A DNA stretch of 64,000 nt from IMG/VR virus record IMGVR_UViG_3300032050_010539. One strand, written 5' to 3'. The DNA comes from a virus. The notes under the pieces were generated by a model, which worked only from the letters and a program-made list of their open reading frames with translations, made no database searches and was not told the origin of the DNA. Below, piece by piece: positions 14,196-64,000 of this stretch. Both the position numbers and the translations under genes were made by a program. How positions within the stretch are numbered: the first letter of the stretch is position 1; every line of letters begins with the position of its first letter.

Positions 14196-14597
14196 TTATT
14201 GTTGTAGTGTCACCTCGGTTTGTATTTCATGTTCAATAAATGAAAGGATATTAATCATGATTCGTGTTCCTTTTTCACGCCATAAGCTTAGTTCTTTACA
14301 TTGACATATTCCATCTCCTTTGAACAAAATTTTATTATTTTTTTCTTGGTTTACCCATACTGTAAAAACTCCTTCCCACGCTAAACGATCTATAATGCAA
14401 TAACCTTTTATTAAGTCAACTTGCAAATTACTCGGATCGTGACTAATAATGTCTATGTATATTTCTATAAAAGCTTTACATCCATAAATACACGGTTCCC
14501 CATTTTGTCCAGTCCATTTATCATCATCCCATCTTAATTCGGGATAATTTTCTTGACAAAAATATAGTATTTTCGTGGTTACTTCTGCTATGTTCAT
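14196..14597 (-). CDS. Hypothetical protein, island paralog family (KIxxFCxxxYPxLxW)
   Basis: Shares N- and C-terminal motifs with 14594..15019 and 15794..16156. Confidence 0.75.
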   Translation of the reverse strand: MNIAEVTTKILYFCQENYPELRWDDDKWTGQNGEPCIYGCKAFIEIYIDIISHDPSNLQVDLIKGYCIIDRLAWEGVFTVWVNQEKNNKILFKGDGICQCKELSLWREKGTRIMINILSFIEHEIQTEVTLQQ

Positions 14598-15019
14598 AGT
14601 GTTACCTCGGTTTGTATTTCAGTTTCGATAAATGAAAGAATGTTAATCATAATTTGTGTTCCTTTTTCACGCCATAGATTTAGTTCTTCATGTTTAGCAG
14701 TCCCACTTTTCTTGAATGAGATTTTACTGTTTTTTCTATCATTTATCCATATAAGAAAACTTCCTTCCCAATCTAGATTAGAGATAGTAGTTCGACCATC
14801 TATATAATTTCTAAAATCACTAGGTGAACCGTCACTGCTATAAGAGTTGTTGCTATTGACCTTTATATCTATTTGTATTCCATTTATAGAATTAAGAATA
14901 GAGTGATACCCGTAAATCATGTCTTGAGTTTTAGTTAAAGACGTAAGTGACCACTTTAGCTCTGGGTAAGTTTTTTGGCAGAAATTAAATATTTTTTGGG
15001 ATGCTTCTTGTTTGTTCAT
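14594..15019 (-). CDS. Hypothetical protein, island paralog family
   Basis: C-terminus LWREKGTQIMINILSFIETEIQTEVTL is nearly identical to that of the neighbouring gene. Confidence 0.75.
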   Translation of the reverse strand: MNKQEASQKIFNFCQKTYPELKWSLTSLTKTQDMIYGYHSILNSINGIQIDIKVNSNNSYSSDGSPSDFRNYIDGRTTISNLDWEGSFLIWINDRKNSKISFKKSGTAKHEELNLWREKGTQIMINILSFIETEIQTEVTL

Positions 15020-15029
15020 TGTTATTACC

Positions 15030-15386
15030 TTAAATACAAATAACTAGATCACCGACACAAACATTGATAAATTTCTCGCAATTGTATCGAGAATTATTGC
15101 AAGCTTGAATAATAGAGGTATTTTCCTCAACAGAAATAACCATTCCTGACCCTTTATAAAGAATACGATGACCAATGAAGTCTCTAGTTATTGGGTCGTA
15201 TATTGGCTTGTTTGTAATTGAATAAACCAAGTGAGAGGCATCTATTCGGATACGATTTAATTCACCACGGTTTATTACTACTTTAAAATCATCGATAACT
15301 TCAATTACCTTAGCTGGATACGTTCCTTTAGGCGGAAGTCCTAGATCTTTATCTGTTGCCATTGTTTTAAGTGTATGTAGCCTCAA
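15030..15386 (-). CDS. Hypothetical protein with FlgT-C-terminal-like beta domain (likely start MATDK)
   Basis: Pattern AKVIEVID.FKVVINRG...VY....IYDPIT...IG.....KG...V..V.E. Confidence 0.5.
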   Translation of the reverse strand: MRLHTLKTMATDKDLGLPPKGTYPAKVIEVIDDFKVVINRGELNRIRIDASHLVYSITNKPIYDPITRDFIGHRILYKGSGMVISVEENTSIIQACNNSRYNCEKFINVCVGDLVICI

Positions 15387-15780
15387 TTGTTTTAATAAAG
15401 CCTAAAATAGTCTTCATTATCTTTGTTGCTTCTGGAATTAAGATATTTAAGTTTTCGTTAATCCCCTCACTTTTTGGCTCTTTTTTAATCGAATCTATCT
15501 CAACCCAATCATGCCCAGTGGCTGTCCCCTCTACCCTAACTACTAAAGTTTTAGATGATTTGGAACGATACTCAACCCAAACATCGTATCTTCCTTCTAG
15601 CTCGTTTGGATAGAGAATATTGATAGAGCCTTCTAATACTAAATCTGTGAAGACATCTATTTGCCTTAGCTTAAGAGTCCATTTTGAGTAATCAGCCATT
15701 TTATAAGTATTATCACAAAAAACTCCGATTTGTTTTAATGCTTCTATCATTTTGTAAGCATCTATTTCCCATGTGTCCAT
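15367..15780 (-). CDS. Hypothetical protein, distant member of the island paralog family
   Basis: KQIGVFCDNTY...W and C-terminal KIMKTILGFI. AGGAG RBS upstream. Confidence 0.65.
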   Translation of the reverse strand: MDTWEIDAYKMIEALKQIGVFCDNTYKMADYSKWTLKLRQIDVFTDLVLEGSINILYPNELEGRYDVWVEYRSKSSKTLVVRVEGTATGHDWVEIDSIKKEPKSEGINENLNILIPEATKIMKTILGFIKTIEATYT

Positions 15781-15793
15781 CTGTTACTCCTAT

Positions 15794-16156
15794 CTATTCT
15801 TGAATTTCATCAAGGATGAAGTTAAAAATATCTAGCACTATTTTTCGGGTTTCTCTGTATTTGTTGTTAAAATAATCACGTTTTGACTTTCTAATATAAT
15901 CAAAGAATATTTTATTTTCATAAGAACGGTTATTGTCTCTATCGTCAGGGTTTATCCATAATTCAAATCCGCCCACATCATACGCTCCGCATGAAACACG
16001 CTTAAGCAGTCCATCCAGAAAAACCTCTATTATTAATTCATCAGGAAAAAGTGGACACTGAATTGTATTATTTTCAGAGTCAAGATTCCATCTTAAATTT
16101 GGATAACTTCTGTGACAGAATTCAAATATTTTCTCTGTTACTTGTTTTATGTCCAT
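15794..16156 (-). CDS. Hypothetical protein, island paralog family
   Basis: KIFEFCHRSYPNLRW...IFNFILDEIQE. AGGAG RBS upstream. Confidence 0.75.
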   Translation of the reverse strand: MDIKQVTEKIFEFCHRSYPNLRWNLDSENNTIQCPLFPDELIIEVFLDGLLKRVSCGAYDVGGFELWINPDDRDNNRSYENKIFFDYIRKSKRDYFNNKYRETRKIVLDIFNFILDEIQE

Positions 16157-18705: not shown

Positions 18706-20130
18706 TTACTGTCTATTCTGTAATTTTATCACTAATTCGTGGAAAGGTTGCCAATCGTCTTTAGAGGTAATTGCTTCCCAAACCGATTCGATTAGCGGTC
18801 TAAGTAAAGCGGTTTTAGGATTATAATGCGTTAAGGTATCGCCAATTTGAGACAAGGAATCTGGGGGTAATTGATTTAAGACCAAACTATATAACTCTCG
18901 CCAACGTTGCCAATCAGCTTTTGGTAAATCCATATTTTCAAGAATTAGAGAACTATTTTCTCGCCAACCGTAATTAAATTGTTCACTTAATTGATAGAAA
19001 AATTCGTGATAACCGAGGCCAGTTTCTTGGAGAACTTCCACAGTTTTGCTGACCAGTAAAGCGGATTCGGGAGTAAAAATATCCTCAAAACCTAACTTTT
19101 TAAGCATCATTTTTTGATAATAAAAATTGTAGTGCTGGTCATAGTTAGCCAAGGCCATATCTAACTCTAACAAGGAGACAACCATGGCCAGGGGAGATTG
19201 CAGTAACTCTAGATTTAAACGACAGATAAAAGGCTGATTACCGTAACTATAGCGACCACCGTAGTCGAAATAGGCCGCCGTAAATTGGGGGTTATAGTAA
19301 GGAATAAAAGCGTAGGGACCATAATCAAAACTTTCCCCAGTAATTGACATATTATCGGTATTGAGAACCCCATGACAAAAACCTGCGGCCATCCATTGGG
19401 CTGCTAATTTAGCGGTTCTTTCGATTAAAGCGGCGTAAAATTTTAAATAGCGATCGCTATCTTGGGGATCGATTTCAGGATAATAATAAATAATCACATG
19501 ATCGAGGAGTCTTTTAATTAAATCGGCACGTTTAATATGAAATAAACGCTCAAAAGTCCCGAAACGAATATGAGAATTACTAACTCGAATCATCACCGAA
19601 GATCGCGTCGGGGAAGGTTCATCACCACGCCAGAGGGGTTCCCCCGTTTCCACCAAACTCAAACAGCGAGAGGTATTCACCCCTAAACCGCGTAAAGCTT
19701 CCCCGGCTAAGACTTCTCTAACTCCACCCTTGAGAGTTAACCTACCGTCCGCATGACGGGAATAGGGGGTCCGTCCCGATCCTTTCGTACCAAAATCGTA
19801 TAATTTGCCATCAATACCCCTAACTTGACCGTAGAGAAAACCGCGACCATCTCCCAAAAAAGGATTATACTCGCCAAATTGATAACCGTGGTAACGCAGG
19901 GCTAAAAAGGGGGTAAGGGCTTGAAATTTACCAAAAGCCTCGATAAAATGCTCATCTAAGGTTAATTCTGGCTGAATTCCCACCAAAGGTAATAAAGCAT
20001 CATTGCGAAAACGAAGGATATGACGGGGAAAATCCGCAGCCGCAACTTGATCATAGTATTGGCCCCCCAAATCCTGCATGGCGCTTTCGTAAGGGAGACT
20101 GAGAAAGAGATTGGTGAGATGGTCTGTCAT
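18706..20130 (-). CDS. selO: Protein adenylyltransferase SelO (YdiU), cyanobacterial type
   Basis: Motifs GYQFG...[22 protein letters not shown] and [21 protein letters not shown] are intact. HIP1 GCGATCGC at 19450-19457. Confidence 0.95.
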
Positions 20131-49704: not shown

Positions 49705-50415
49705 CTATGCGAGGGGCTCCAACGTATTGAGGAGTGTCTTGGCCATCTGTATACGCCGGTAGATACGACTCGCTATAGCTGGATTCTCCTTGTTCACCTC
49801 CTCTATTACAATTTGCTTGAATCGGTCTATGGCCTCGAATTGCTTGACAGTCTCCATCAGTGCGCGCGCATCCTTCAGTAGTTGGCGCTGTTCCTGCAAC
49901 ATAGTTACCCATATTTCCTCCTTGACTTTCCTAGCCTTAATAAATGGCTCATCATCAGCCGACTCGAGAGCTATAATACCTGCTTTAAGATCATTGAATA
50001 TAGTCTGTAGCTGCGTCTGAGTATCAAATACAGAGCCATATGGATAGTTCACCCTTTCCATTATAGGCGCGCTTCTATAAGCGGTTATCCATTCACCTAC
50101 CTCGCGCGCTGTAAGATCAACCCCGTGCATAGATAAGGCGCGGGATATATCGCTCTCACTGGAGCCCTTCTCTATTAACTGCACGACAAATTCTGTCATC
50201 CCACAAGCATCAATAGGATGGCGGAGAGCCACCTTATAGTTATCCAGTGGTTCAGATATTACAGGGTCATTGAATAATCTCTCTAGAGCTACTAACCGCT
50301 CCCAGAGGGGCTGCCATTCAATAGTCCCTATAAGCTGCTTACTATCAAGTAGACTACCAAAGTCATCCTTCCAGTCCCGCAGTTCCTGCAGTATATTAGT
50401 GTAGTCTGCCATCAT
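49705..50415 (-). CDS. Hypothetical protein (HTH-like segment plus coiled coil)
   Basis: SESDISRALSMHGVDLTAREVGEW followed by a helical C-terminus. Confidence 0.6.
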   Translation of the reverse strand: MMADYTNILQELRDWKDDFGSLLDSKQLIGTIEWQPLWERLVALERLFNDPVISEPLDNYKVALRHPIDACGMTEFVVQLIEKGSSESDISRALSMHGVDLTAREVGEWITAYRSAPIMERVNYPYGSVFDTQTQLQTIFNDLKAGIIALESADDEPFIKARKVKEEIWVTMLQEQRQLLKDARALMETVKQFEAIDRFKQIVIEEVNKENPAIASRIYRRIQMAKTLLNTLEPLA

Positions 50416-50842
50416 CTACCACGCTATTCAAGTAATCAGCGGCTGTATAGACATTACCCTCGACGATCTCAGGGATCTCGATGCGCTTATCCTCTTCCTC
50501 CATCTGCATACGAATATCAATGGGGCCTAATACAGGCATGATATCAGGATTAATCAGATAATTAAGTAATTGGATAGCAAAAGCATCAAACTTACGCTTA
50601 ATGGTACTACTATCTACATTAAGACCGCCCGCAATGTCATTGCGACTGCGCTGCGTAGCCCAGAGCCAGGCAGCATGCCTGTATATGTCCGGGCTAGTTC
50701 TCATAATTAAATACATGCACTTACGCACTGTCTCATATGAGAATGTTCGATTGTAACAAGCAGACTCGAAATCAATCTGCTGATAGAACTTCTTACGCAG
50801 ATAATTCTTTACTTCATCAAGCCAGGGGTTAGGTTTGGGCAT
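50396..50842 (-). CDS. HTH DNA-binding protein (sigma region-4-like)
   Basis: SRNDIAGGLNVDSSTIKRK. Confidence 0.6.
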   Translation of the reverse strand: MPKPNPWLDEVKNYLRKKFYQQIDFESACYNRTFSYETVRKCMYLIMRTSPDIYRHAAWLWATQRSRNDIAGGLNVDSSTIKRKFDAFAIQLLNYLINPDIMPVLGPIDIRMQMEEEDKRIEIPEIVEGNVYTAADYLNSVVDDGRLH

Positions 50843-50891
50843 ACATATCCTCTATATACCCATTAATCTTATCGTACTAAATACCAGTATG

Positions 50892-52034
50892 TCAATTTAA
50901 TAATCTATAGAGATCAAGTAGACTCTGATCCTCTGCGAGCTCAGGGTAACAATCATGGAGATAGGGACAAGGCTTACCAAAGGAATCGAGACAGGGACTA
51001 TAATTATCCTCAGGGTAATGGTGAGGGTAGAAACCTGCTGTGATTAATTTGTGCGTGCCAAAGAATGAGGTTAATACGCGATCCATGATGCTGCGGTCAA
51101 TAGGCGTTAGTACCAGACTACCCTCCCTGACGTTATAGATACCCATAGCATCAACGCGAGTGCCTGTCAATTTCTCATAGGCATAGGCATAGGCACAGAG
51201 CTGAGGGTTATACGCCAGCTTATCTGTAGTATAGGCAGACTTACTGGTCTTATAATCAACTATAGTTAGGCCATGAGAGGTGATTCCCACCCAGTCAATG
51301 AAGCCCAGGAGGTTGATACCGGCATCACCGCCGCAATCAGTCGGCATGGGCACCTCATTTATAATAGTGCCGTCATTATATCCACTGATAGGTAACTCAA
51401 CATAGATAGTGCGCTTAAACTCCTTAGGAGGAATAAAGGCCCGGCACAGGTTAAACGCGTCAGTCAGTGCACCAATAACATCAAGCTCAACATCCAATTC
51501 AGGATTAAGCATAAGCATATATTCATTAGCTGCATGCCGTAGAGCGAGGAGGGGCTCCTCTGCCTGTTTCCATGCAGTAGTAGACTGATAAGCGCTACTC
51601 ACCTTACCGGCAGCGGTGCGTATGGCATCGGGACCCTTATAGTCAGCGCGGGCTCTGTTATGCAACACTGCATAACCATCTACTAGGCCCATTAAGTAAC
51701 TAGAGATAGTGGTCTGGTCCGACGCAGGCGTATTAGATACAATGACACCAGCGGCCATAAGCGCGCTTATGTAGGTCTCCTCGAGGCACTGCTCTAGATT
51801 ATAATCATGTTCTACTTCAGGATCATAGTATAACTCGAGGGCCCCATGCACTAGGTTACCCAATAGAGTAGAGCGCGTAGCCCCACTCTTCCTATTGAGG
51901 TCAACGTATTTATGATAGAACTCCATCCCACAGCGGCGATATACGCGCAGTGCACTAACAGAGTAGTAGGGCGGGCGTTCTGCTACAGATCGACTAGTAA
52001 TAATATTAGAGGTCATCGCTAACCTCTGCGCCAT
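50892..52034 (-). CDS. PD-(D/E)XK exonuclease, RecB/Cas4-like
   Basis: YSVSAL....RC, GNLVH.ALE, GFID, IVDYKTS, QL.AYA and C-terminal C...CPY...C. Confidence 0.85.
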   Translation of the reverse strand: MAQRLAMTSNIITSRSVAERPPYYSVSALRVYRRCGMEFYHKYVDLNRKSGATRSTLLGNLVHGALELYYDPEVEHDYNLEQCLEETYISALMAAGVIVSNTPASDQTTISSYLMGLVDGYAVLHNRARADYKGPDAIRTAAGKVSSAYQSTTAWKQAEEPLLALRHAANEYMLMLNPELDVELDVIGALTDAFNLCRAFIPPKEFKRTIYVELPISGYNDGTIINEVPMPTDCGGDAGINLLGFIDWVGITSHGLTIVDYKTSKSAYTTDKLAYNPQLCAYAYAYEKLTGTRVDAMGIYNVREGSLVLTPIDRSIMDRVLTSFFGTHKLITAGFYPHHYPEDNYSPCLDSFGKPCPYLHDCYPELAEDQSLLDLYRLLN

Positions 52035-52557
52035 AATGAGCTAATAATACTGCCTCAGCCATACCATCATGGGGCTTGTGACAGAGAGAAGTCCTGAATA
52101 AATTAACAGCAGGATAGAGATTCACAGCAATAGATACACTGCGTGTCTTAGTAGGTTTATTATAGGTCCATTTGATAGGCGGGGTCATATCGGCATAGTG
52201 CGATTGCCACTCACGGGAATCTACTATTACATAATTCAGACCTATACCCTCCAATAGGCCAACTAGTCTCCCATAGTTAAACATAGTCTTAGCAGCAGAA
52301 CCCAGACCCTGGCGCTGCTCCTTTCCCTCAACCATCTTGGGCCGGACTACTATCTGACGCTCAATAATAGTAAGATGAGGTTTATAATGAGACAGGTAAT
52401 TCTTAATTACCCCCATGTTTATATCCTTATCAGACGTAGAGATTGGCATGATTCTAACATCAACTACATTATGGGTATCACCCTTTTGTAGTATACAAAG
52501 CCCCCCAGCTAAACCTGGGTCTATCCCACATATAAATTTAATCAAGATAATCACCAA
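52006..52557 (-). CDS. RuvC-like Holliday junction resolvase
   Basis: GIDPGLAGG, IIE, FNYG and HDGMAEAVLLA. Confidence 0.85.
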   Translation of the reverse strand: MVIILIKFICGIDPGLAGGLCILQKGDTHNVVDVRIMPISTSDKDINMGVIKNYLSHYKPHLTIIERQIVVRPKMVEGKEQRQGLGSAAKTMFNYGRLVGLLEGIGLNYVIVDSREWQSHYADMTPPIKWTYNKPTKTRSVSIAVNLYPAVNLFRTSLCHKPHDGMAEAVLLAHYGAEVSDDL

Positions 52558-52605
52558 CTAATATATTATCATTATAGCACATAACGCCTGCTACACTGAG
52601 AATAA

Positions 52606-52803
52606 TTAATTGAATTGAAACAACCAGGGATTCCAAGTTAGTTCAGTATTATCATCTAACGTGACAACCACTTTGTTCTTATGATTAACGTAGGGGTTAC
52701 CCTTCGTGTTATAACTATAACCCGCTGACTTAGGATACGTTGATTGATATGCTATATTAGTAACTACTTTATTATTAATCTCATCACCTAGCTTGATGTG
52801 CAT
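52606..52803 (-). CDS. Small hypothetical protein
   Basis: 65 aa, overlaps the end of the radical SAM gene. Confidence 0.5.
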   Translation of the reverse strand: MHIKLGDEINNKVVTNIAYQSTYPKSAGYSYNTKGNPYVNHKNKVVVTLDDNTELTWNPWLFQFN

Positions 52804-53705
52804 GAGAAGCCTGCCTGGAAGTAATCGATTAGTGAAGTAGAGTCGAATGACGTGCGGTTATAACTACGACTAGTAGGAGCATACTGCTGCTTAACCGCAT
52901 CAATATACATAGTGAACTGGAAGTCATCGCCCATATAGAAGCGGGCCCACCCCTCATCAGTGAATAAACGTCTGAGCTCTAACTGTTCGATAGCCAGGTT
53001 ATCAAAGGAGAGATTACACCTGCCTATAAGAAAGGGTAGAGAACGCCGCCACTGCGCTATGCCTGCATCTACCTCAGGGCTATGATAATCTATACCGAAG
53101 CCGAAGTTCTTATAGCCTAGTACGAGTACCTTACTGGTTGCAGCACTGAGATTAACCAACTCATCGATTATACTAACGGGATGGATACCAGCGATTATGT
53201 GATACACGATGTTATCTGAGAGACGCAGTACTGATATCAGACTGCTATAGTTACTACTAGTAATTGAGATGCCGAGGCCCCGCACTAACTCCCGGCTTAC
53301 GATATCCTCTATTAGAGTATCGTAGCGATGTAGATGACCTTGGTTAACAGTAATGTTAGCTATAAGCCCGCGGGCCTTAAGTTCTACTAGGTAATCCACT
53401 ATATTAGGATGAGATAGTGGGTTACCACCTCCGTTTGCTAACTCGACCCCAGCAGGTATATCACTAAGGACATCGAGTAACCGTGTTAGGTCAGCGTGTT
53501 TACCATTACGAGTAGAACTCTCATGACAATATTTACATCCCATATCACAGTAGTCAGTGATCTTAATATCTATAGAGCAGGGATAGGCGGGGCGGGCCCC
53601 AACCACACTTGTAGTACGAACCAGGGTACCATCAGCATATAGAGTACACTCATAGTCACCATTGGTATAATGCGCTAAAGTTGTCGTTTCATTAAACTTA
53701 TTCAT
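52788..53705 (-). CDS. Radical SAM protein
   Basis: CDMGCKYCH (CxxxCxxC) and GGGNPL. No Cys-rich SPASM tail. Confidence 0.9.
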   Translation of the reverse strand: MNKFNETTTLAHYTNGDYECTLYADGTLVRTTSVVGARPAYPCSIDIKITDYCDMGCKYCHESSTRNGKHADLTRLLDVLSDIPAGVELANGGGNPLSHPNIVDYLVELKARGLIANITVNQGHLHRYDTLIEDIVSRELVRGLGISITSSNYSSLISVLRLSDNIVYHIIAGIHPVSIIDELVNLSAATSKVLVLGYKNFGFGIDYHSPEVDAGIAQWRRSLPFLIGRCNLSFDNLAIEQLELRRLFTDEGWARFYMGDDFQFTMYIDAVKQQYAPTSRSYNRTSFDSTSLIDYFQAGFSCTSS

Positions 53706-53709
53706 AGAA

Positions 53710-54045
53710 TTACGGATAATCAGTATTAATCCCCATGATCTCGCAGGCTTCGATTAATTTATCTATCCCCCCGAACCATCCGGCGGTAACATTAGAATGG
53801 CTCAACGTGCATCGGAGCTCTTCGATGAGGCATTCACCTCTACGCTCTTCTGTGTAGGCTTCTGGAGAAGGATATAATTCGCATTCCCAATCTCCTACTT
53901 GACGGTGAGTATCAATATCAAACTTTTTGTTATCAACCACTATATACTTTCGCCCGACTGATTTAATAGTTCCCCATGTACCATCCTCGTGGGGAATTAC
54001 TGCCCATACCCTGGCCCCCTTTTTAATAAAGTCTTTTGGCAACAT
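53710..54045 (-). CDS. Hypothetical protein (SH3-like beta barrel N-terminus)
   Basis: GTIKSVGRKYIVV pattern and GAGG RBS. Confidence 0.55.
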   Translation of the reverse strand: MLPKDFIKKGARVWAVIPHEDGTWGTIKSVGRKYIVVDNKKFDIDTHRQVGDWECELYPSPEAYTEERRGECLIEELRCTLSHSNVTAGWFGGIDKLIEACEIMGINTDYP

Positions 54046-54094
54046 TTGATTTTCCTCTGGTAAATTAGTTTAGACGAGCTTTAGCTAGTGATAT

Positions 54095-54589
54095 CTAATT
54101 GCCCTTGTAAAAGAAGTCGCTAGCATACTCCATAACTGCTTTATTATCAATCACATAACTGTAGTCATTATCACTACCGGTTAGGATAAAGCTATAGGGC
54201 GAGAATAGATAACGCATCATCATATTTTTATTAGCTACAATAGCATCGAGGAAGCCGTTCAACTCATTGGCATGATCCATGTAGCCGTCATTAAGACTTT
54301 CGTATTCGTCATATACTACATCCTCGGCAGTTACAGCAATACCCTCTGATAGCAGGTAGAGTATCATGTCATAGGCGTCTTTCATCCTATCGTTAGCGGC
54401 GAAGCCCGTGTATAAATAACTGGCCTTGGCTGCTATAGAACTCAGGATAATAGTATCAGAACCAAATTCGCCAATCTCGAAATGTATTAATTCAGGGATA
54501 GTAAGGCTAGTCTGACAGGGAATAGATATACTATGGGTGCTCGAACTATTAGTTTCAAATACACCCTGACGGACTTGAATGCTAAGCAT
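54095..54589 (-). CDS. Conserved phage protein of the RxGVFETNSSSTHS type
   Basis: N-terminal motif VRQGVFETNSSSTHSISI and later GYMDH. Confidence 0.7.
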   Translation of the reverse strand: MLSIQVRQGVFETNSSSTHSISIPCQTSLTIPELIHFEIGEFGSDTIILSSIAAKASYLYTGFAANDRMKDAYDMILYLLSEGIAVTAEDVVYDEYESLNDGYMDHANELNGFLDAIVANKNMMMRYLFSPYSFILTGSDNDYSYVIDNKAVMEYASDFFYKGN

Positions 54590-54670
54590 AGAAACCTCTT
54601 AAGAAATTGTAGATCTACTTACGACGGGTTGACACTAGTCTCGACAACAGAGGCACGACAGTGAGGGCTA

Positions 54671-54751
54671 TCAGGTTAAGTCATTAAACAATAAGCCAAT
54701 TATTGTAATAAGAGCGAGAGCCAGCCCTATAACTAACGGTGCATTATCCAT
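54671..54751 (-). CDS. 26-aa single-pass membrane peptide MDNAPLVIGLALALITIIGLLFNDLT
   Basis: Manual translation. A GGAGG RBS lies just upstream and the ORF fills an intergenic gap. Confidence 0.55.
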   Translation of the reverse strand: MDNAPLVIGLALALITIIGLLFNDLT

Positions 54752-54810
54752 CTTAACCTCCCAGGATTATTAATAGTGATTTGACATTAACTCTAGTGGA
54801 ATGGGGAGCG

Positions 54811-55612
54811 CTATCGTTTATCTGCGGCGAAGGCGCGTTGTGTTAGCTTAGCCATATCCCTAATAGCATCCCATCCTGCCTCACCATATTGAGATACAGC
54901 ATATTGCTCAACAGCGAGTAGTATATCAGCTAACTCGCACTGCCTCAATAACGAATTAGTGGCCTCGCGACACTCGAGCAACTCCTCGTATATCTTATCC
55001 AGCGTATTAACAAAATATTTAGGGATAGGACTAGAGTGATAGCCCGGCTGGAAGGAGTCATTAACTGCTATACTAAAGCGGGGCTCAGCTATACCAGTGC
55101 CATAGTACCACCAGTGGTCCTCATAAGAGCGCTTACCATAAGAACCCAGCTCTAGATTCAATGGGGTATAAATTATATCTGTCTCATTGTCACAACGCAC
55201 AAACTTGAGATTATGTGGATTAATGTAATGTAGCATCCACTGGTATGCATCACGACAGATAGTATCTTCAGTCATACCAGGCATACCCTTATACACGAAT
55301 AACTCTAGTTTCATGAAGTAAGGGCGGCTATAATCATCATTATCCAGTGGACGAAAGCACGGCGTAATAGCTTGCAGTGCGTCACCTGCCTGATAATGTC
55401 CATTTATCGCATTATAGATGAAGGTCTGTTCTGCGCTACCTACCAGCACAAAAGAGTCGTAACAGCTATAGGAGGCCTGACTGTTAGGCTCTGGTGAGGT
55501 TATAGAGCCGATATCGCGAGGGCACGACCCATTTTAGATCGACTATTCTATAGCCCTTCTGTTTATAGTACTCCTGCGCTTCTACTAAATAGCGGTAATT
55601 AATAGTAAACAT
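54811..55612 (-). CDS. Class II aaRS-like catalytic mini-domain fused to MazG-like domain; frameshifted at about 55521
   Basis: aaRS-like motifs LVGSAEQ, TPCFR, YFMKLEL, ELGSYG, GTGIAEPR. C-terminal KIYEELLE...ELADILLA. The upstream frame MFTINYRYLVEAQEYYKQKGY...WVVP joins if one base is removed. Confidence 0.65.
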
Positions 55613-55616
55613 TTGA

Positions 55617-55958
55617 TTAGTCCTTAATTAATAGAACGTTTCTTTCTTGATAATACGCTAGGCGGCCCTCGCAAAATTGAATTACAGAGCTAGGTTGAGC
55701 CTTAAGCACCTTTTCTACCTTGGCATTGTCAAAGAAGCGCACATCCTTATTTATAAAGTTAGGAGATAATAGGTCGTTGATCTCTATGAAGATACGCGGA
55801 AGTAATTCAAGTAAAGAGGCGGGCGGCTCCTCCTCGATTACTCTCTCACATAGAGCTGCATCCATCTGACAGAGATACACATGGAATGGCTTATTAGGGT
55901 ACTCTTTCATCAGATACTCTAGATTAAGACTAATAAGCATAGATAGGTTAGCAGACAT
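55617..55958 (-). CDS. Hypothetical protein
   Basis: 113-aa ORF in the operon. Confidence 0.6.
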   Translation of the reverse strand: MSANLSMLISLNLEYLMKEYPNKPFHVYLCQMDAALCERVIEEEPPASLLELLPRIFIEINDLLSPNFINKDVRFFDNAKVEKVLKAQPSSVIQFCEGRLAYYQERNVLLIKD

Positions 55959-56448
55959 TAAATAATCTCCTGTTAATATCAGATGATAGGAAGGCCTCTA
56001 ACCAGACAGGGCGGGGCTCTATAAGATAACAGGCCCGCGCTGCGATAAGAGGATGATAGAAGTAAGGTAAAAACTCTAGCTGAGCTAGTGCCTCTATATG
56101 ATGAGGCGTAGCTATACCTCTATGATCTAGTATACCCAGGGTAGGGTAGCGCTCGTGATATATATTTAGGTTATAGTTGTGCAGATACTCAGTAGTATCT
56201 AGACAGTACCAGGCAGCGCCAGAGCGGGGCCGCTCCATATCAGATAGGTAGCCTGTTATAATCGGCGGGCCCTCACTATCCTCACATAGATACTCTATGG
56301 CACGTCTATACATACGCCACTCCTGGGCCCAACTCGACTGTAGTGTTATAGTAACAGCACTATAGCGGCCATCAGCGTAACGCCCTACATAATAGGGGTA
56401 TATCATACAATCGCGAGCTGGTATACTCACGTGATAATTAGTCATCAC
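55948..56448 (-). CDS. Hypothetical protein
   Basis: 166-aa ORF coupled to the primase gene. Confidence 0.6.
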   Translation of the reverse strand: MMTNYHVSIPARDCMIYPYYVGRYADGRYSAVTITLQSSWAQEWRMYRRAIEYLCEDSEGPPIITGYLSDMERPRSGAAWYCLDTTEYLHNYNLNIYHERYPTLGILDHRGIATPHHIEALAQLEFLPYFYHPLIAARACYLIEPRPVWLEAFLSSDINRRLFNVC

Positions 56449-57638
56449 GATCCAAATAGTAGAGAGGCATATTCAAGGGGCCCTAATTGATTATCTACAT
56501 AAGGAGCCAGTAGCCCTAAGGGGGAATGAGTGGCAGTTAATACCCGCAATATATCTACGTGATGACTAATGTCGGGCCCCCATTGAGCTAGTAAATCATC
56601 TACGAATAGTATGCGGTTAGCATTAATAGTATCAGCAGCATTAACGCGAGGCTCTGCTACCAACCACTCATTAATATCCTTATAATCAGCAACCATATAC
56701 GTCATAAGCTCAGCTAATGGTAAGTTAATCTGCAGCTGAACTAGTTGAGGTATGATACGCACCCAGCTCTTATATACGCCAGCATGAGTAGGATGATCAT
56801 CGCTATACTTATCTGAGTCGAATATAAATGTGATATGACGGAAGGGCTTGAATTTACTGGTGTGACATAATAGATACTCCAGACCCAATAACCCCACTAC
56901 AGGTAAACCACGACCTACTAGTGATGTGGCATCAGGCGGGCCCTCAACTATATATAGCTCGCGAGCTGGGTGCTTACTATACTCCTTAAGACAATGTTCT
57001 AGATAGAGATAGCGCTTACTATTAATAGCGGCCCGCGTATCCTTATAACGGGGGGCCCTCTCACTACTACCTATATAGCGACCAACCATATGGACTAGAT
57101 GACCTCGTGTATCTCGTATAGGGAATATAATGCGTTCCCTATAGTAATCCTCGCCGTCCTCCTTAATCAGACCCTCGCGGGCTAATGCCTCATGATCTAT
57201 ATCGAATTGACGTAGACCACCAGGAGGAGCATACCCTATACCAATACTACGAGCTAGATCGAGAGACCAGCCCCGCCGTAGTATATAATCCTGAGCAGCA
57301 GGCGTAGTATCAAGATAATAGTGATAGGCCTCTAGCGCGCTCTCTAGTACTATACTGCGAGCATCCATAACCTCGCGGGCCTGACGTATACCGGCGCGGG
57401 CCTCTAACTGTTGCATAGCCCCAGCATAATCAAGCTTAGTATGCCAACGCCAGGCATTAACCAGGCCCATACCTGCGTTCAACTCACAACTAGTCCTCCA
57501 GCACTTCATATAGTGCGGATATACACTCAGCTTACCGCGGCCCCCACAAGCAGGACAATCATTAGTACCATGCCGTAGATTTAGTAGCTCTGGTATAGTT
57601 AGCCGCTCCATTATCAGTTGTTCATTCTCTCTCGTCAC
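56445..57638 (-). CDS. DNA primase (DnaG-like)
   Basis: Zn finger CPACGG...C...C, RIIFPIRD..G, and TOPRIM motifs IVEGPPDA and FDSD. Confidence 0.9.
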   Translation of the reverse strand: MTRENEQLIMERLTIPELLNLRHGTNDCPACGGRGKLSVYPHYMKCWRTSCELNAGMGLVNAWRWHTKLDYAGAMQQLEARAGIRQAREVMDARSIVLESALEAYHYYLDTTPAAQDYILRRGWSLDLARSIGIGYAPPGGLRQFDIDHEALAREGLIKEDGEDYYRERIIFPIRDTRGHLVHMVGRYIGSSERAPRYKDTRAAINSKRYLYLEHCLKEYSKHPARELYIVEGPPDATSLVGRGLPVVGLLGLEYLLCHTSKFKPFRHITFIFDSDKYSDDHPTHAGVYKSWVRIIPQLVQLQINLPLAELMTYMVADYKDINEWLVAEPRVNAADTINANRILFVDDLLAQWGPDISHHVDILRVLTATHSPLGLLAPYVDNQLGPLEYASLLFGS

Positions 57639-57739
57639 CGCTCTCCGTATATTGTATGAATGCCCTATAATAACTAAGCTTGAACTTAAACATTAATACA
57701 TATTGCCTGTTAATGGCAAGATGCTCGAGATAAGTGATG

Positions 57740-57898
57740 TCACTTACCCGTAGCCCATTCCATAAGAATATCTCGGTCAACATACCTCACCCACGTCATC
57801 CATACTTCCGTTCTTAAGGGATACCTTCGACATGGTTCAGGCCATATATTTATATCTCGTCTATCGCGCCACATATCGCCCTCTAATATAAATTGCAT
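57740..57898 (-). CDS. Possible 52-aa Trp-rich ORF between the array and primase
   Basis: Manual translation MQFILEGDMWRDRRDINIW...EWATGK. Overlaps the end of the last array unit. Confidence 0.3.
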   Translation of the reverse strand: MQFILEGDMWRDRRDINIWPEPCRRYPLRTEVWMTWVRYVDRDILMEWATGK

Positions 57899-58053
57899 AC
57901 TTCCAGTCTGTAATAAAACAAAGCAAGTTCGAAAGAATTACAATCATAAAACTTACGCATTAAGTGATATACCTCAATGGGGGGTTCAGGCATAAACATA
58001 GAGGCCTTCAGCTTATTGTGCAGAGTCCAATCGTTATGATTAATAGTATTCAT
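57883..58053 (-). CDS. Terminal array peptide, 56 aa (not in the ORF track)
   Basis: MNTINHNDWTLHNKLKASMFMPEPP...LALFYYRLEVCNLY. Confidence 0.5.
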   Translation of the reverse strand: MNTINHNDWTLHNKLKASMFMPEPPIEVYHLMRKFYDCNSFELALFYYRLEVCNLY

Positions 58054-58875
58054 TCAAACAAACCTTTATGATTCAATCTAGAGTAAAACGAACCGACATG
58101 ATTCCTGCTCATTAAATAAGAGCGGGTTACTAAGTAATTTGCAGGCTCAATAAGTATAAAGGCCTTAAGCTTATTGTGTAGAGACCAATCATTAATCATA
58201 ATCATCTTCATTGAAATCATCTTCATTGAAATAACCGCCCTTATGTATAATGTCATCCTTACTCATTCTCATCTAAAATGTGTTAGACAATTCACTTACC
58301 AGTCTATAGTAAAACTGGTCGACAGAGGTAATAAGTATAGAGGCCTTCAGCTTATTGTGCAGAATCCAAATATTACAATTTAGTCTTCATCGAAATAATT
58401 GTATAGCAGTCTATAGTAAAATTGATCTATAAAAGTAATAAGTATAGAGGCCTTGAGCTTATTGTCGATAGTCCAGTCGTAAAGCGAACCCAATTTGAAA
58501 TAATCATTATTACACAGAACCCAATTATTATATAAAATCCAATAAGTAGAAATTCTCTTCATCAAAACAAACCCTTATGATTCAATCTAGAGTAAAACGA
58601 ACCGACCTTATTAAATAAGACCAGGTTACTAAGTAATTTGCCCCAACGAAAGACTCAATAAGCATAGAGGCTTTTTATTATTTGTCTCAGTGGAAGGTTC
58701 AGTAATAAGTATAGAAGCTTTAAGCTTATTGTGTAGAGTCCAATCACACAAACTCTTATGACCCAATCTAGAATAAAACAAACCGACATAGTACCTGCTC
58801 ATTAAATAAGACCAGATACCATAATTTGCCTTAACGGAAGGCTCAATAAGCATAAAGGCCTCAAAGGTCCAATCA

Positions 58876-59028
58876 TTAATCATAATCATCTTCATCGAAA
58901 TAACCGTCCTCATTTAGAATAATAAACCAATAAAACCGGGTTACTAAATAATTTGCCCCAACGGAAAACTCAAGCATAGGGGCCTTAATAAGCTTATTGT
59001 GCAGAGACCAATCATTAATCATCTTCAT
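58876..59028 (-). CDS. Array peptide, 50 aa (not in the ORF track)
   Basis: MKMINDWSLHNKLIKAPMLEFSVGANYLVTRFYWFIILNEDGYFDEDDYD. Confidence 0.5.
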   Translation of the reverse strand: MKMINDWSLHNKLIKAPMLEFSVGANYLVTRFYWFIILNEDGYFDEDDYD

Positions 59029-61031
59029 CGAAATAATCATCTTTATATAGAATGTCGTATATCGCAGCTCTTAGTCTATAGTAAAACCCGCCGGTAGAGA
59101 TAATAAGTGTACGGGCCTTTAACTTATTGTTGAGAGTCCAGTCGTAAAACAAAGCAAGTTTAAAAACTTTACAATTAACCATCTTCATAAAATGCAACTC
59201 TTATGATTCAATCTAGAGTAAAACGAACCGACATAATACCTGCCCATTAAATAAGACTCGGTTACTAAGTAATTTGCCCCAACGGAAAACTCAATAAGCA
59301 TAGAGGCCTCAAGCTTATTGTGCAGAGACCAATAATCATTAATCATCTTCATCGAAATAACCGTCCTCATATTCATCAAATTGGCCATCCTCAAGATAAT
59401 AACCGCCCTCATCTAGAATATCATCTTTATCTAGGATGTTTTCTAACATATTTATCAATCTACAGTAAAACCGGAAGATAGAGCCGCAACACTTGCTTAG
59501 TTTAGGAGTATAAATCTCGAAACCCATCTCTTCATAATAATGAAACAAGCGCAAGGCATTGAGATAATCATTATTCAAAATCCAAGGTAACAGACAATCG
59601 TTAGAAACATTCTTCATTGAAATAACCGTCCTTATATAAAATATCATTCTTATTCATCCTCATCTAGAATGTTATGTATAACACACTTACCAGTCTATAA
59701 TAAAACTGGTCGACAGAGATAATAAGTATAGAGGTCTTCAACTTATTGTGCAGAGTCCGAAAGTAATTTGCCCCAACGGAAGGCTCAATAAGCATAGAAG
59801 CTCTAAGCTTATTGTTTAGAGTCCACCCTTCACATATAATCATCTTCACTAGAATAACCGTCCTTATGTATAAAGTAATCCTTATTCATTCTCATCTAGA
59901 ATGTGTTAGACAGTCTATAGTAAAACAGGTCTACAGAGGTAATAAGTATAAAGGCCTTCAGCTTATTGTGCATAATAAAGGCAAATTTGAAAGATTTATA
60001 GCTTACTAAATCATTTATCTCAGCGAAAGACTCAGTAGTAAGTATAAGGTTATTATGTGTAATCCAATATTTAGAGATAGTGTTCATTAAAGTAATCATC
60101 CTCATTTAGAATATCACTCTCATCTAGAGCGTTATATATAAAAGCCACTAGTCTATAGTAAAGCCGGTTGATAGAGCACTTGCTTAATTCAGGAATATGA
60201 CTCTCGAGGCCCACATCCTCATAATAATAAAACAAGTAATTAAGCTTGTTACAACTAATTGCTCTCATTGAAGTAATCGCCCCCCATTCAGAAAGCCATA
60301 TATCCCAAATTCTCCCATTCTATAATAAAACCAGGCGAGTCCCCCAGGACTATAAGCAAAATACAATTTACCTAATAATACCTGTAGGTCAACAGACGGA
60401 TCAGTAATAGGTATAGGTATATTTAACCTATTACGTGGGGCCCATTTGCTACAATTAATTATCTTCATCGAAATAATCATCCTCATCTAGAATGTTATAT
60501 AACACATCTCCTAATCTATGATAAAATACGTTGATAGGAACATGTAACTTGTTCAATTCAGGGATATAGACCTCGATACCCATGTTTTCATAGTAGTAAC
60601 GATAAGACCATAGATGGTATTTTCTATTACGAGGAGCCCAATTATTACAACTAATCATCTTCATCGAAATAATCGTCCTTATCTAGAGCGCTATATAATC
60701 TAGAGTAGAACGAACGGACGTAGAACCTGCTTATTAAATAAAACCTAGGTACTAAGCCGGTTGTTCTAACGGAAGGCTCAATAAGCATAGAGGCTCTAAG
60801 CTTATTGTGTAGAGTCAACTCATCACATATAATAGTCTTCATAAAAACATACTCCTACCCAGTCTGAAGTAAAACAAAGATGTCGAAGCAGACACCCCCA
60901 CCCAAAAAATACTGTAATGCGTAGCGAGGTTGAAATAATTATGATTATAATACTTTCTTACATTTATATCAGTGGAAGGCTCTCTACTAGATATAGATAC
61001 CCTAAGTTTGTTATTAAGCATAGGCCAATAA

Positions 61032-61187
61032 CTAATCATCTTCATCGAAATAATTATCCTCATATAGAATGTCGTATATCGTAGCTTTTAGTCTATAGTA
61101 AAACCCGCCGGTAGATAATAACTTTAGCTTATTCTTGGGAGTCCAGTCGTAAAACAAAGCAAGTTTGAAAACGTTACAATTAATCAT
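61032..61187 (-). CDS. Array peptide, 51 aa (not in the ORF track)
   Basis: MINCNVFKLALFYDWTPKNKLKLLSTGGFYYRLKATIYDILYEDNYFDEDD. Confidence 0.5.
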   Translation of the reverse strand: MINCNVFKLALFYDWTPKNKLKLLSTGGFYYRLKATIYDILYEDNYFDEDD

Positions 61188-61732
61188 CTTTATAGAATAT
61201 ATACTTATTTACTATGTCACATACCAGTCTATAATAAAATCGGTCGACAGCATAAAACCTTAATTCAGGAGTATAGGTATCGATATCCATACGCTCACAA
61301 TAATAAAAGAAGTAATTAAGCTTGTTATAACTAATTGCCCTCATTGAGGTAACCGCCCCCCATAAAGGCCATATAACCCAAATCCTCCCAGCCTATAATA
61401 AAACCAGGCGAGTCTCCCAGGACTACAAGCAAAATACAATTTACCTAATAATCCTTGTAGGTCAACAGACGGATCAGTAATAGGTATAGGTATATTCAAG
61501 TTATTACGTGGGGCCCAATTGTTACAATTAATCATCTTCATTAAAGTAATTGTCCTCATATAGAATGCTATACAACACTACTCCCGCTAGTCTATGGTAA
61601 AACCTGGCAGGCCCCCCAGCGTTATAAGTATGAAAGTTATAGTTATAGAAACTGTAGTATAAACTATCACTGTCTACTAAAATCGACGGGTCAGTGATAT
61701 ATGTATTTAGTTTACTACGTGAAGGCCAACCA

Positions 61733-61927
61733 TTAATCATCTTCATCGAAATATAACAATCTATGGTAAAATCAAACAGTCCCTCCTCTAGAATCATCAA
61801 GATAGAAGTTATAGAATAACTTATTATCTGCTATCAGAGGGTTAGTAATGGGTACAGGTGCATTCCATGCATACGAAACCCATTCAATATCACGCGGAGC
61901 CCAACCGTTAGAATTAATTATCTTCAT
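61733..61927 (-). pseudogene. Array unit with internal TGA at 61772-61774
   Basis: Reads GGTV*FYHRLLYFDEDD, compared with GGPAWFYYRLLYFDEDY in the sister unit at 62604. Confidence 0.65.
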
Positions 61928-62092
61928 AGAAATAATGATAGGTTACGGTAAACGCAAGCGACTCCTCCGGCACTATAAGTGTGAAATTTATAGTATAAAT
62001 AATTACGGTTTGCTATCAACGGGTTGGTAATAGGTACAGGTATATCCCGTATATGCGCAGCCCTTCTATTACGAGAGGCCCAATTGTTACAA

Positions 62093-62251
62093 TTAATCAT
62101 CTTCATCGAAATAATCATCCTCATTCAAAGGTAACACTACTGCTCCTGCCAGTCTATAATAAAACATAGTGAGCCCCCAATAAACTCTAATAGGCATAGA
62201 TATATTCAACTTATGACGTGGGACCCATTTGTTACTACCAACTATCTTCAT
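62093..62251 (-). CDS. Array peptide, 52 aa (not in the ORF track)
   Basis: MKIVGSNKWVPRHKLNISMPIRVYWGLTMFYYRLAGAVVLPLNEDDYFDEDD. Confidence 0.55.
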   Translation of the reverse strand: MKIVGSNKWVPRHKLNISMPIRVYWGLTMFYYRLAGAVVLPLNEDDYFDEDD

Positions 62252-62409
62252 AGAAATCGTCCTTAGCGAACAGTGTCAGTCTATAATAAAATAACATGAT
62301 AGAAGTTTTGTAGTGGTAACGATAAAAGCTATAGTATAAACTATCACTGTTTGCTAAAACCGACGGGTCAGCAGCAAGTATATTCAACTCATTACGTAAA
62401 GGCCAATTG

Positions 62410-62604
62410 TTAATAATCTTCATCGAAATATAACAATCTATAGTAAAACCAAGCAGGCCCTCCACCATGATAAAGATAGAAGTTATAGAATAACTTATTA
62501 TTATCTGCTACTGGAGGAACAATAATAGGTACAGGTGCATTCCATTCATACGGAGCCCATTTAATAGTACGCGGAGCCCAATCATTACAATCAATCATCT
62601 TCAT
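62410..62604 (-). CDS. Array peptide
   Basis: Intact unit ending YFDEDY. Confidence 0.6.
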   Translation of the reverse strand: MKMIDCNDWAPRTIKWAPYEWNAPVPIIVPPVADNNKLFYNFYLYHGGGPAWFYYRLLYFDEDY

Positions 62605-62881
62605 AGAAATAATCCCCCTCCCCTAGAAAGTCATATAACAAACATGCTAGTTTATAATAAAACAAGTCGATAGGAACATGTAACTTGTCTAATTCAGGGA
62701 TATAGGCCCCGAGACCCATGCTTTCATAGTAGTAACGATAGAACCATAGATAGTATAGATTATCACCATTTGGTAAAATCGGTGGGTCAGTAATAGGTAT
62801 CGGTATACTCAACTTATTACGTGCAGTCCAACAATCGTTATTACTATGAGGCGCCCAATTGTTACAATTAATCATCTTCAT
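62591..62881 (-). CDS. Array peptide (long composite unit)
   Basis: Intact 96-aa unit ending YFYEDD. Confidence 0.6.
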   Translation of the reverse strand: MKMINCNNWAPHSNNDCWTARNKLSIPIPITDPPILPNGDNLYYLWFYRYYYESMGLGAYIPELDKLHVPIDLFYYKLACLLYDFLGEGDYFYEDD

Positions 62882-63094
62882 AGAAGTAATAATAGGTTGT
62901 AGTTATCTTCATCTAGAAAGCTATACAACACTACTCCTACTAGTCTATTGTAAAATTTGGCGGGCCCTCCATCATGATAAAAATAGAAGTTATAGAATAA
63001 CTTATTATCTGCTATTGGAGGGACAGCAGTAGGTACATATGCCCCCCATCCAGACGGAGCCCATTTAATATTACGCAGAGCCCAATTATTACAA

Positions 63095-63292
63095 TTAATC
63101 TTCTTCATAAAAATAATGATAGGTTATATTACGGTAAACGCAAGCGACTCCTCCGGCACTATAAGTGTGAAAGTTATAGTATAAATAATTATGGTTTACT
63201 ATTAACGGGTTAGTAATAGGTATGGGTGCGGCCTCTTCATACGGAACCGGCTTATTACGAGGAGCCCAATCGTTACAATTAATCTTCTTCAT
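63095..63292 (-). CDS. Array peptide
   Basis: Intact unit ending YFYEED. Confidence 0.6.
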   Translation of the reverse strand: MKKINCNDWAPRNKPVPYEEAAPIPITNPLIVNHNYLYYNFHTYSAGGVACVYRNITYHYFYEED

Positions 63293-63470
63293 AGAAGTAA
63301 TATTCTGCCCCTGTCAGTATATAATAAAACATATCAAGCCCCCCAGTATCATTATAAACATAAAAACTATCGTATAAATTATCAATGCTCATTAGAGGCG
63401 GATTAGTGGTAGGTATGTATGGAGTCCACGCATAACGAGGAGCCCAATTGTTAGAATTAATCTTCTTCAT
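63279..63470 (-). CDS. Array peptide (start corrected to MKKIN)
   Basis: Intact unit with 14-nt overlaps on both sides. Confidence 0.6.
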   Translation of the reverse strand: MKKINSNNWAPRYAWTPYIPTTNPPLMSIDNLYDSFYVYNDTGGLDMFYYILTGAEYYFYEED

Positions 63471-63696
63471 CGAAATAAGTGTCCTCATATAGAATGTTGT
63501 ATAGCACACTGAAATAACCACCCTCATTTAGAATGTTATATAACATATATGACAGTCTATGATAAAACCAGACGAGTCTCTCAGGATTATAAGCAAAAAA
63601 GCATAATCCCTGTAGGCCAACAGGCGGGTTAGTAATAGGTATAAGTATACTCGACTGATTACGTGGGGCCCAATTGTTAGAATTAATCTTCTTCAT
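63457..63696 (-). CDS. Array peptide (MKKIN...YFDEED)
   Basis: Intact unit. Confidence 0.6.
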   Translation of the reverse strand: MKKINSNNWAPRNQSSILIPITNPPVGLQGLCFFAYNPERLVWFYHRLSYMLYNILNEGGYFSVLYNILYEDTYFDEED

Positions 63697-63892
63697 CGAA
63701 ATAATTGTCCTTATATAGAATATATAATACTATTCCCGACAGTCTATAGTAAAATATAGCAAGTCCTCTAGAATTATAAAGATAGAAGCTATAGTATAAA
63801 TTATTGATATTTGCTACTGGCGGGGCAGTGATAGGTATAGGTGCAATCCATTCACTACACGGGGCCCAGCAATTTGGATTAATTGTTTTCAT
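63683..63892 (-). CDS. Array peptide (MKTIN...FYYRL...YFDEED)
   Basis: Intact unit with a 14-nt overlap to the next unit. Confidence 0.6.
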   Translation of the reverse strand: MKTINPNCWAPCSEWIAPIPITAPPVANINNLYYSFYLYNSRGLAIFYYRLSGIVLYILYKDNYFDEED

Positions 63893-64000
63893 AGAGATAG
63901 TTATCCTCAGCTAAAATATCAATATCCTGTCTGTAGTAAAACGCCTTGAAATAAAAGAAGTTGATAGAGACATATAACTTGTGTAATTCAAGGGTATAGG

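Follow-up and report, generated by a model that had tools for sequence, protein, structure and literature searches.

The window analysed here, a 64,000-nt stretch of viral DNA (IMG/VR record IMGVR_UViG_3300032050_010539), contains at 57883–64000, on the minus strand, a tandem array of micro-genes whose products measure 50–96 amino acids (aa). These units are real genes. They form a lineage-restricted tandem multigene family that was found only in Ma-LMM01-like (Fukuivirus) myophages of Microcystis and that evolves by birth and death, units being gained, lost, partly recombined and sometimes broken. It is very probable that the array is a translated gene family under the selection regime described below. 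The best overall explanation, to which we give about an even chance, is a birth-and-death repertoire of small binders or adaptors, each combining a constant handle with variable segments, and directed at host factors that vary. Microcystis, which forms blooms and produces toxins, is known for a very large defence arsenal, and phages of the Ma-LMM01 type serve as its reference viruses. A single gene family takes up about 4% of the phage genome, and the array turns over faster than its surroundings yet was kept in every genome examined.

The window derives from a Fukuivirus-type myophage of Microcystis, a relative of Ma-LMM01, since positions 50000–57600 were 94.6% identical to Ma-LMM01 (NC_008562, 127016–134625) and about 94% identical to the MaMV isolates. 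Over positions 57600–64000 the coverage by these relatives was just 45%, at an identity of about 85%; the array lies in the most divergent region of the window, directly upstream, in the sense of transcription, of the primase gene (56445–57638, minus strand). A family profile was built with twelve units as seed and iterated over six-frame translations. The resulting hidden Markov model matched 29–34 segments in the 64-kb window, all on the minus strand and between 57886 and 63998, so the array is present where a preliminary description of this DNA had placed it. The in-window part consists of 30 units bearing an open reading frame (ORF) plus fragments, and the 30 units occupy 5,841 of its 6,118 nt. 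Unit length was 160–290 bp, with a median spacing of 196 nt in nine arrays. The unit frame had no internal stop, as against 6–14% stop codons in the other five frames of the same unit interiors, and 23 of the 24 window matches to the junction start motif fell inside the array on the minus strand. The guanine-plus-cytosine (GC) content of the array was 35% versus about 47%.

The array was also followed past the end of the window, as had been predicted. The metagenome contig L006 matched the last 163 nt of the window exactly and continued for about 975 nt more, still made of units, and the contigs L017 (an NCBI metagenome assembly) and L018 (a JGI metagenome) showed no mismatch to positions 52591–64000 (0 in 11,410 nt). 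The complete array obtained from these two contigs comprises 37 segments in 7.1 kb (L017 7884–14996) and extends about 1 kb beyond position 64000. At its start it overlaps the last part of an ORF of 138 aa that lies below the RecD-like helicase block, and two small ORFs separate its end from the primase. The earlier count of at least 31 units holds for the array in full and, for the window with its 30 units and fragments, is approximately correct. An assembly artefact was ruled out. The unit 62594–62881 was present on 18 contigs, and the five that were fetched, from five samples, were 99–100% identical to the window; the highest identity between any two window units was 86% over at least 150 nt; and five isolate genomes carry the array as well.

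When ten diverse units were searched against PHROGs v4, all ten matched phrog_4393 (E-values from 7.1e-27 to 1.8e-4), a cluster annotated there as of unknown function. Its members are the GenBank "hypothetical proteins" gp137–gp157 of Ma-LMM01 and their counterparts in MaMV-DC, -DH01, -CH01/02 and -DL01/02; the Ma-LMM01 genes belong to the same family and occupy the same site, between primase and helicase, as the window array. The preliminary description had found no named family to which the units could belong, which was nearly right: they form phrog_4393, and that cluster has no assigned function. The database entry is a sequence cluster only, to which the array, its selection regime, its turnover and its restricted distribution are added here. 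No description of the tandem array, the selection regime or the turnover was found in the literature searched, a search that did not include the Ma-LMM01 genome paper (Yoshida 2008).

The family units had no match in PADLOC, in Rfam (E ≤ 0.1) or in a sequence-profile search of the PDB. The Pfam search returned none at E ≤ 1 except sub-threshold noise, and a feature search of the ESM Atlas gave nothing usable. Inhibitor-type homology was not detected via Pfam, PDB sequences or the Atlas, and PADLOC was also blank, but its models describe defence proteins and not inhibitors. A profile of 30 window units matched only 70 clusters among 1.84 billion representative proteins, all of them of 46–97 aa, and the family motifs were present in all 12 clusters inspected, the weakest matches included. 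The junction 21-mer was absent from 185,579 prokaryote species (one genome each), and in IMG/VR it occurred in Fukuivirus-like contigs only. The array was located at the same site in five isolate genomes (Ma-LMM01, MaMV-DC, -DH01, -CH01 and -DL01) and five IMG/VR contigs; in every case it lay between the primase and the RecD-like helicase block, oriented as they are. In the window and in every relative scanned, the family matches were confined to the array and to its coding strand. The profile search of the Ma-LMM01/MaMV-type genomes and contigs, a check proposed in the preliminary description, revealed a variable copy number, with 22–38 matching segments per genome, and a very different content.

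The scaffold motif given in the preliminary description was correct, and the units carry the motifs it listed. The intact exemplar at 63683–63892 (minus strand, 69 aa; phrog_4393, E = 7e-27) has an MK-x-IN..W N-terminus, a PIPIT-x-P segment, a Tyr-rich variable part, FYYRL and an acidic YFDEED tail. Constraint at the protein level was evident in 293 distinct units aligned to the profile. Column Y48 was Tyr in 99% of them, encoded by TAT and TAC (130 and 121 times), and L51 was Leu in 98%, spread over four codons with differences in both the first and the third position (CTG, CTA, TTA and TTG); L32, L59 and Y64 likewise kept their residue with synonymous codon variation. Among 98 independent cross-genome pairs, the columns W9, L32, F36, Y37, F47, Y48, L51, L59, Y64 and F65 were rarely replaced, and synonymous changes exceeded replacements at L32, Y48, L51, L59, Y64 and F65. 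Most other columns had replacements in 15–35% of codons versus 0–8% for synonymous changes. With the units of nine arrays bounded by nucleotide motifs alone, 128 of 173 (74%) were open from the ATG to the next junction, which bears out the earlier observation that most frames stay open. An initial stop-codon depletion test was discarded as biased, both sequences having been preselected as ORFs, and the unbiased test was not significant (4 stops observed, 8.2 ± 2.6 expected). An alternative coding frame, +1, was also rejected: its lower ratio of nonsynonymous to synonymous substitution rates (dN/dS) vanished under composition control, and the frame is full of stops.

Neighbouring units overlap at a conserved junction. 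In the 32-nt example at 62093–62124 (minus strand), one frame reads ..EDDYFDEDD-stop and the next reads M-R-M-I-I-S-M-K-M-I-N, the ATG of the next unit lying 14 nt inside the preceding ORF. An exact 14-nt overlap was found at 83 of 173 junctions in the nine arrays, and a 4-nt overlap at 8 more. Since the upstream Met of the junction is often absent, the proximal MK-x-I start is the likely start of the units. The third-position entropy of the overlapped codons was near zero; the tail of one unit and the head of the next share nucleotides, which puts a double constraint on the final four codons of the tail. The tail and head motifs recognized earlier are thus correct, but over the stretch in which those four codons coincide, nucleotide for nucleotide, with the opening codons of the following unit they amount to one constraint. 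The L-x-E-D-x-Y-F part of the tail sits upstream of the overlap and is conserved independently of it, at the protein level: D62 varies synonymously there, as do L59 and Y64, and to this extent the acidic tail of the preliminary description stands. A start codon inside the end of the upstream ORF is also characteristic of translationally coupled overlapping operon genes (ATGA or longer). In the present case about 37 such overlaps follow one another, with a single conserved junction of 21–32 nt, and the coupling is putative.

The selection regime was quantified by setting each window unit against the DNA segment that matched it best in eight other genomes, with no ORF demanded of the subject and 33 nt trimmed from both ends. 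For the array, dS was 0.087 and dN 0.063 (dN/dS 0.72, confidence interval 0.49–1.09), and for eight flanking genes dS was 0.096 and dN 0.013 (dN/dS 0.13, 0.08–0.22). The similar dS values indicate that the mutation rate of the array is ordinary and that the difference lies in a five-fold higher replacement rate. A permutation test that preserves base composition and substitution type revealed a strong synonymous excess in the flanking genes (z = +9.9) and none in the array as a whole (z = −0.7); the non-anchor, variable columns had a synonymous deficit (0.221 versus 0.263, z = −3.3), and the junction columns a mild synonymous excess (z = +3.4). Indels whose length was a multiple of 3 made up 73 of 144 (51%), and 13 of 25 in the unbiased set, where one third would be expected. 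About ten anchor residues are under purifying selection and the frame is kept open, while the remainder changes at or slightly above the neutral rate. The selection on the peptides that had been proposed is real, then, but limited to these residues and the open frame, and single units are weakly constrained: the two measures put forward for it, dN/dS and indel phase, gave an interval reaching 1.09 and an in-frame share above the expected third.

The repertoire turns over rapidly. The 249 units of at least 40 aa from ten sources fell into 127 clusters at 80% aa identity, 74 of them confined to a single genome, 7 present in five or more genomes and none in all nine. Window units were usually nearer to a unit in another genome (53–100%) than to any neighbour (0–81%), which implies long-standing unit lineages and arrays that diverged through gain, loss and rearrangement, not through recent local duplication. 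The nearest relative, whose primase is 99% identical in aa sequence, had just four blocks in common with the window at an identity of at least 88%. Copy number and content differed strongly among phages with primases 98–99% identical, and the block order was not collinear between phages. As a result of this turnover, phages with near-identical replication genes carry largely different repertoires. The location of breakpoints at the junctions was considered and rejected, the ends of homology blocks within 45 nt of junctions being only mildly enriched (47% versus 35%), and therefore exchange must also occur inside units. Varying tandem paralogues, truncated copies (e.g., 61772–61927 and 58273–58386) and a raised dN/dS at similar dS are the features of a birth-and-death family. 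The idea of an expanded, rapidly diversifying repertoire of real small genes was upheld by anchors held at the protein level, by variable copy number and content and by the slight replacement excess. The array was also considered as the target of a diversity-generating retroelement, and this was rejected because no repeat pair exceeded 86% identity over at least 150 nt; no search for a reverse transcriptase was made.

The products are rich in aromatic residues, with 18.6% Y+F+W as compared with 7.5% in large phage genes (Y 10.4%, F 5.4% and W 2.8% versus 3.8%, 2.8% and 0.9%). AlphaFold2 models were built on family alignments for two units. The 69-aa unit was modelled with a mean predicted local distance difference test (pLDDT) score of 64, residues 1–28 being disordered and residues 29–61 forming a helix, with a pLDDT of about 76–86 over residues 41–60. 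In the 96-aa unit (pLDDT 50), residues 1–38 were unstructured and were followed by two helices. The conserved anchors fell mostly within the predicted helices of these low-confidence models, where they may form a hydrophobic stripe acting as a core or an interface. A predicted complex of two copies of the unit 63686–63892 scored 0.00, was run without controls and was counted neither way.

Transcript data exist for the homologous array of Ma-LMM01, and the values given here refer to that array and not to the window phage. In the RNA-seq analysis of Ma-LMM01, gp137–157 were placed in subclass B5, of the middle class, with log2 FPKM (fragments per kilobase per million mapped fragments) values of 0–2.8 at 1 h and 7.3–9.8 at 3–6 h; the early genes gp054–063 were at 5.4–7.9 at 1 h and the primase reached 10.9 (PMC5780444 Table S3). 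This middle-class timing means that the units are transcribed with the replication genes at a modest level, and counts against host takeover in the usual sense. The host-takeover role suggested in the preliminary description implies early expression and is not sustained by these values at 1 h (PMC5780444). The other roles suggested there, counter-defence and an acidic tail that mimics nucleic acid or serves for docking, are conjectural.

On the explanation placed first above, each unit product would be a small, largely unfolded adaptor. The aromatic and leucine stripe on its C-terminal helix, together with the acidic Y-F tail, would serve as a constant handle for docking on a common partner or for self-association, and the fast-changing N-terminal and inter-anchor segments would set the binding target of each copy. 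The array as a whole would then provide a standing, quickly renewable set of variants, deployed in the replication phase against host factors that vary. Their likeliest targets would be the defence and toxin-antitoxin proteins of Microcystis, a choice based solely on the abundance of these systems in the host, where they are unusually numerous (492 defence genes, 396 toxin-antitoxin; Makarova 2011 as cited in PMC5780444). That the units are a repertoire of binders directed at variable host factors is a tentative proposition, which we place somewhat short of even. Its more specific form is rather unlikely: a phage-borne, renewable library of specificity peptides, whose constant handle and tail would act on one shared partner while each variable segment neutralises a different member of the host defence or toxin-antitoxin set, the turnover of cassettes mirroring that of the host defence islands. 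Should the units prove to be binders that counter host defences or target the host, these phages would have in the array their main strain-specificity locus, and it would be a natural library of constant scaffold and variable segments in a bacterial virus. In any case it offers a testable arms-race locus in lakes, as cassette repertoires can be tracked in metagenomes.

Several observations weigh against the adaptor explanation. The confidence interval for dN/dS of the array includes 1, and 45 of the 173 units (26%) were truncated or frameshifted. An environmental variant, contig L020 (1130–1640, equivalent to window positions 62200–62650), has one mismatch otherwise and carries a 49-nt tandem duplication in the unit 62410–62604, which shifts the frame and swaps the tail of the unit. 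Since the interval includes 1, a quarter of the units are broken and this frameshifting duplication segregates in one sample, single units are close to dispensable. The replacement excess of the variable columns could stem from mosaic recombination between paralogues and not from positive selection, and therefore these columns are read as neutral to mildly diversifying, short of proven positive selection. Part of the excess of Tyr, Asn and Ile, though not that of tryptophan, is accounted for by AT-biased drift, the array having a GC content of 35%. The helix-handle picture is weak, with both models of low confidence (pLDDT 64 and 50), and the transcripts of the Ma-LMM01 homologues were roughly 2–10 times below that of the primase and not early (PMC5780444). 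The products are known from sequence, predicted structure and homologue transcripts alone.

Much of this would also fit a near-neutral, largely dispensable expansion, which we consider unlikely: a self-starting, overlapping unit would amplify by unequal recombination, and its copies would be made and do nothing specific, as hyperplastic filler. The dN/dS of 0.72 with an interval up to 1.09, the 26% of truncated or frameshifted units, the mere 51% of indels in frame and the natural variant with the 49-nt duplication all agree with it, as do the low GC content (35%), which fits relaxed constraint, and the tolerance of the region to insertions (Ma-LMM01 has IS-type transposases there, and the MaMV-DH01 group three additional genes). 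It does not account for the 22–38 matching segments kept at the same site in every genome examined, from Japan, China and several metagenomes, nor for anchors that persist, through synonymous substitution, in paralogues with nothing else that can be aligned. Frame 0 is free of stops where the other frames have 6–14%, and units nearer to their cross-genome counterparts than to their neighbours point to old, retained lineages. The birth-and-death adaptor explanation was favoured because neutral expansion, though consistent with a high dN/dS and with broken copies, does not explain the anchors or the retention in every genome. If the units were functionless, the array would be a clear example of phage micro-genes evolving by birth and death.

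A quite improbable alternative is that the units are replication-linked modulators, whose acidic aromatic tail would imitate the C-terminal tails of single-strand-binding (SSB) proteins and compete for, or recruit, replication and repair proteins of the host or the phage, so that copy number would outweigh sequence. The array does lie within the replication module (helicase–primase) and shares its middle-class expression, and L-x-E-D-x-Y-F in the tail shows protein-level conservation; the resemblance to the acidic SSB tails is one that we presume. About 40% of the units lack the tail columns, which 186 of 293 have, and the tail closes with acidic residues, where an SSB tip typically has an aromatic or hydrophobic one. 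Moreover, one function would not require at least 127 sequence clusters. Virion-associated small proteins (internal, ejected or decoration) that vary to escape host recognition are less probable still. The units are small, numerous and variable, and their transcripts persist at 6 h, but these belong to the middle class with the replication genes and not to the late class B4 with the head genes, and the array is distant from the structural module.

The preliminary description had also offered two alternatives that fared poorly and that we hold to be highly improbable. On the first, as spelled out here, the units would be precursors of ribosomally synthesized and post-translationally modified peptides (RiPPs), the constant ends serving for recognition and the variable middle as the core, with processing by a nearby radical SAM enzyme. 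Prochlorosins of marine cyanobacteria are a parallel: many ProcA genes encode a conserved leader and a hypervariable core, and there, as here, a genome holds many short genes with constant and hypervariable parts. A radical SAM gene (52788–53705, minus strand, 305 aa) lies 4 kb downstream on the same strand and is the only conceivable maturase nearby. However, its product matched PF04055 alone (E = 1e-7), the NCBIfam maturase models scoring 15–28 bits against cut-offs of 350–650, and no SPASM or recognition-element domain was found in it. The primase and five other genes separate it from the array, and no protease, cyclase, exporter or transporter was found among the ten neighbours scanned. 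The units have no Nif11, NHLP or similar leader (Pfam, E ≤ 1, sub-threshold noise aside), and their variable residues are interleaved with the anchors and do not form one core. Unlike the prochlorosin genes, which are dispersed, those of the array are tandem and overlapping, and no lanthipeptide synthetase or credible maturase is adjacent. The second alternative, a DNA-level element (an origin, a recombination hot spot or an AT-rich spacer by the primase) with incidental ORFs, would explain a GC content of 35% versus about 47% next to the primase and helicase, and a junction conserved at the nucleotide level, but it conflicts with the protein-level selection visible in the synonymous variation at invariant Tyr and Leu columns, with one of six frames being open, with coding units of 160–290 bp that are unlike short iterons, with the lack of any Rfam match at E ≤ 0.1 and with the merely mild enrichment of block ends near junctions.

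Among known viral systems, the multigene families (MGF) of African swine fever virus (ASFV) and the amplification of poxvirus K3L are tandem families with birth-and-death or "accordion" expansion. They have in common with the array tandem paralogues in a variable region, strain-variable copy number and content, pseudogenised copies and a raised dN/dS at normal dS. The array differs from them in its 50–96-aa micro-genes, its fixed 14-nt overlap, its 22–40 copies and its occurrence in a bacteriophage. The T4-type hyperplastic regions and SPO1 gp37–60 are likewise clusters of small, non-essential-looking genes of unassigned function that vary between related phages; most of those genes are unrelated to one another and many are early, whereas the array is one paralogous family of the middle class.

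Individual units of the window, all on the minus strand, illustrate the range of forms. The longest, of 96 aa (62591–62881), has an additional YIPEL-type middle module, and its exact protein was present on 18 contigs. An intact unit at 60651–60842 represents a "LHNKL-x-AS-x-LIEPSV" subtype that prevails in the primase-proximal part of the array, and a "MRAISCNKLNY" subtype unit at 60071–60268 lacks the W-A-P-R-N head and keeps the YIPEL module, YYRL and the acidic tail. In the truncated unit at 61772–61927, a frameshift took FYYRL and the tail, and what remains of them can be read in a different frame, upstream of the unit that follows. A degenerate or fused unit at 58629–58895 holds two partial family domains in one ORF, and the neighbouring fragment at 58273–58386 has no start codon. 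A two-unit block at 61223–61602 is duplicated at 60147–60526 with 83% identity, which places it among the most similar repeat pairs of the window (highest 86%).

The downstream flank begins with a gap between array and primase that in the window holds only two short overlapping ORFs of 53 and 52 aa (57622–57898, minus strand), both outside the family. This gap takes insertions in the relatives: Ma-LMM01 has two transposase-type (insertion sequence, IS-type) genes there (gp135–136, L001 1713–3471), and the MaMV-DH01/CH01/DL01 group has three extra ORFs (MaMV-DH01, L003 1613–2914). The primase itself (PF08275) served as a conserved positive control. Further downstream, the radical SAM protein had far-sub-threshold similarity only, to viperin-like proteins, peptide maturases and NrdG-type activases, and the replication module also encodes a protein with a phage ProQ C-terminal-like domain (53710–54045, minus strand; PF24203, E = 3e-16).

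Additionally, a second tandem paralogue family was noticed at 14196–16156 (minus strand), in a low-GC island (33–35%). Its four ORFs, of 120–141 aa, have common motifs such as F-C-x-x-x-Y-P-x-L-[RK]-W and a C-terminal I-L-x-F-I-x-x-E-I-Q, and had no match in Pfam, PHROG or PADLOC; the three gap ORFs of the MaMV-DH01 group are similar to them in size. Finally, the window encodes at 18706–20130 (minus strand) a full-length SelO-type protein adenylyltransferase of 474 aa (PF02696, E = 2e-212).

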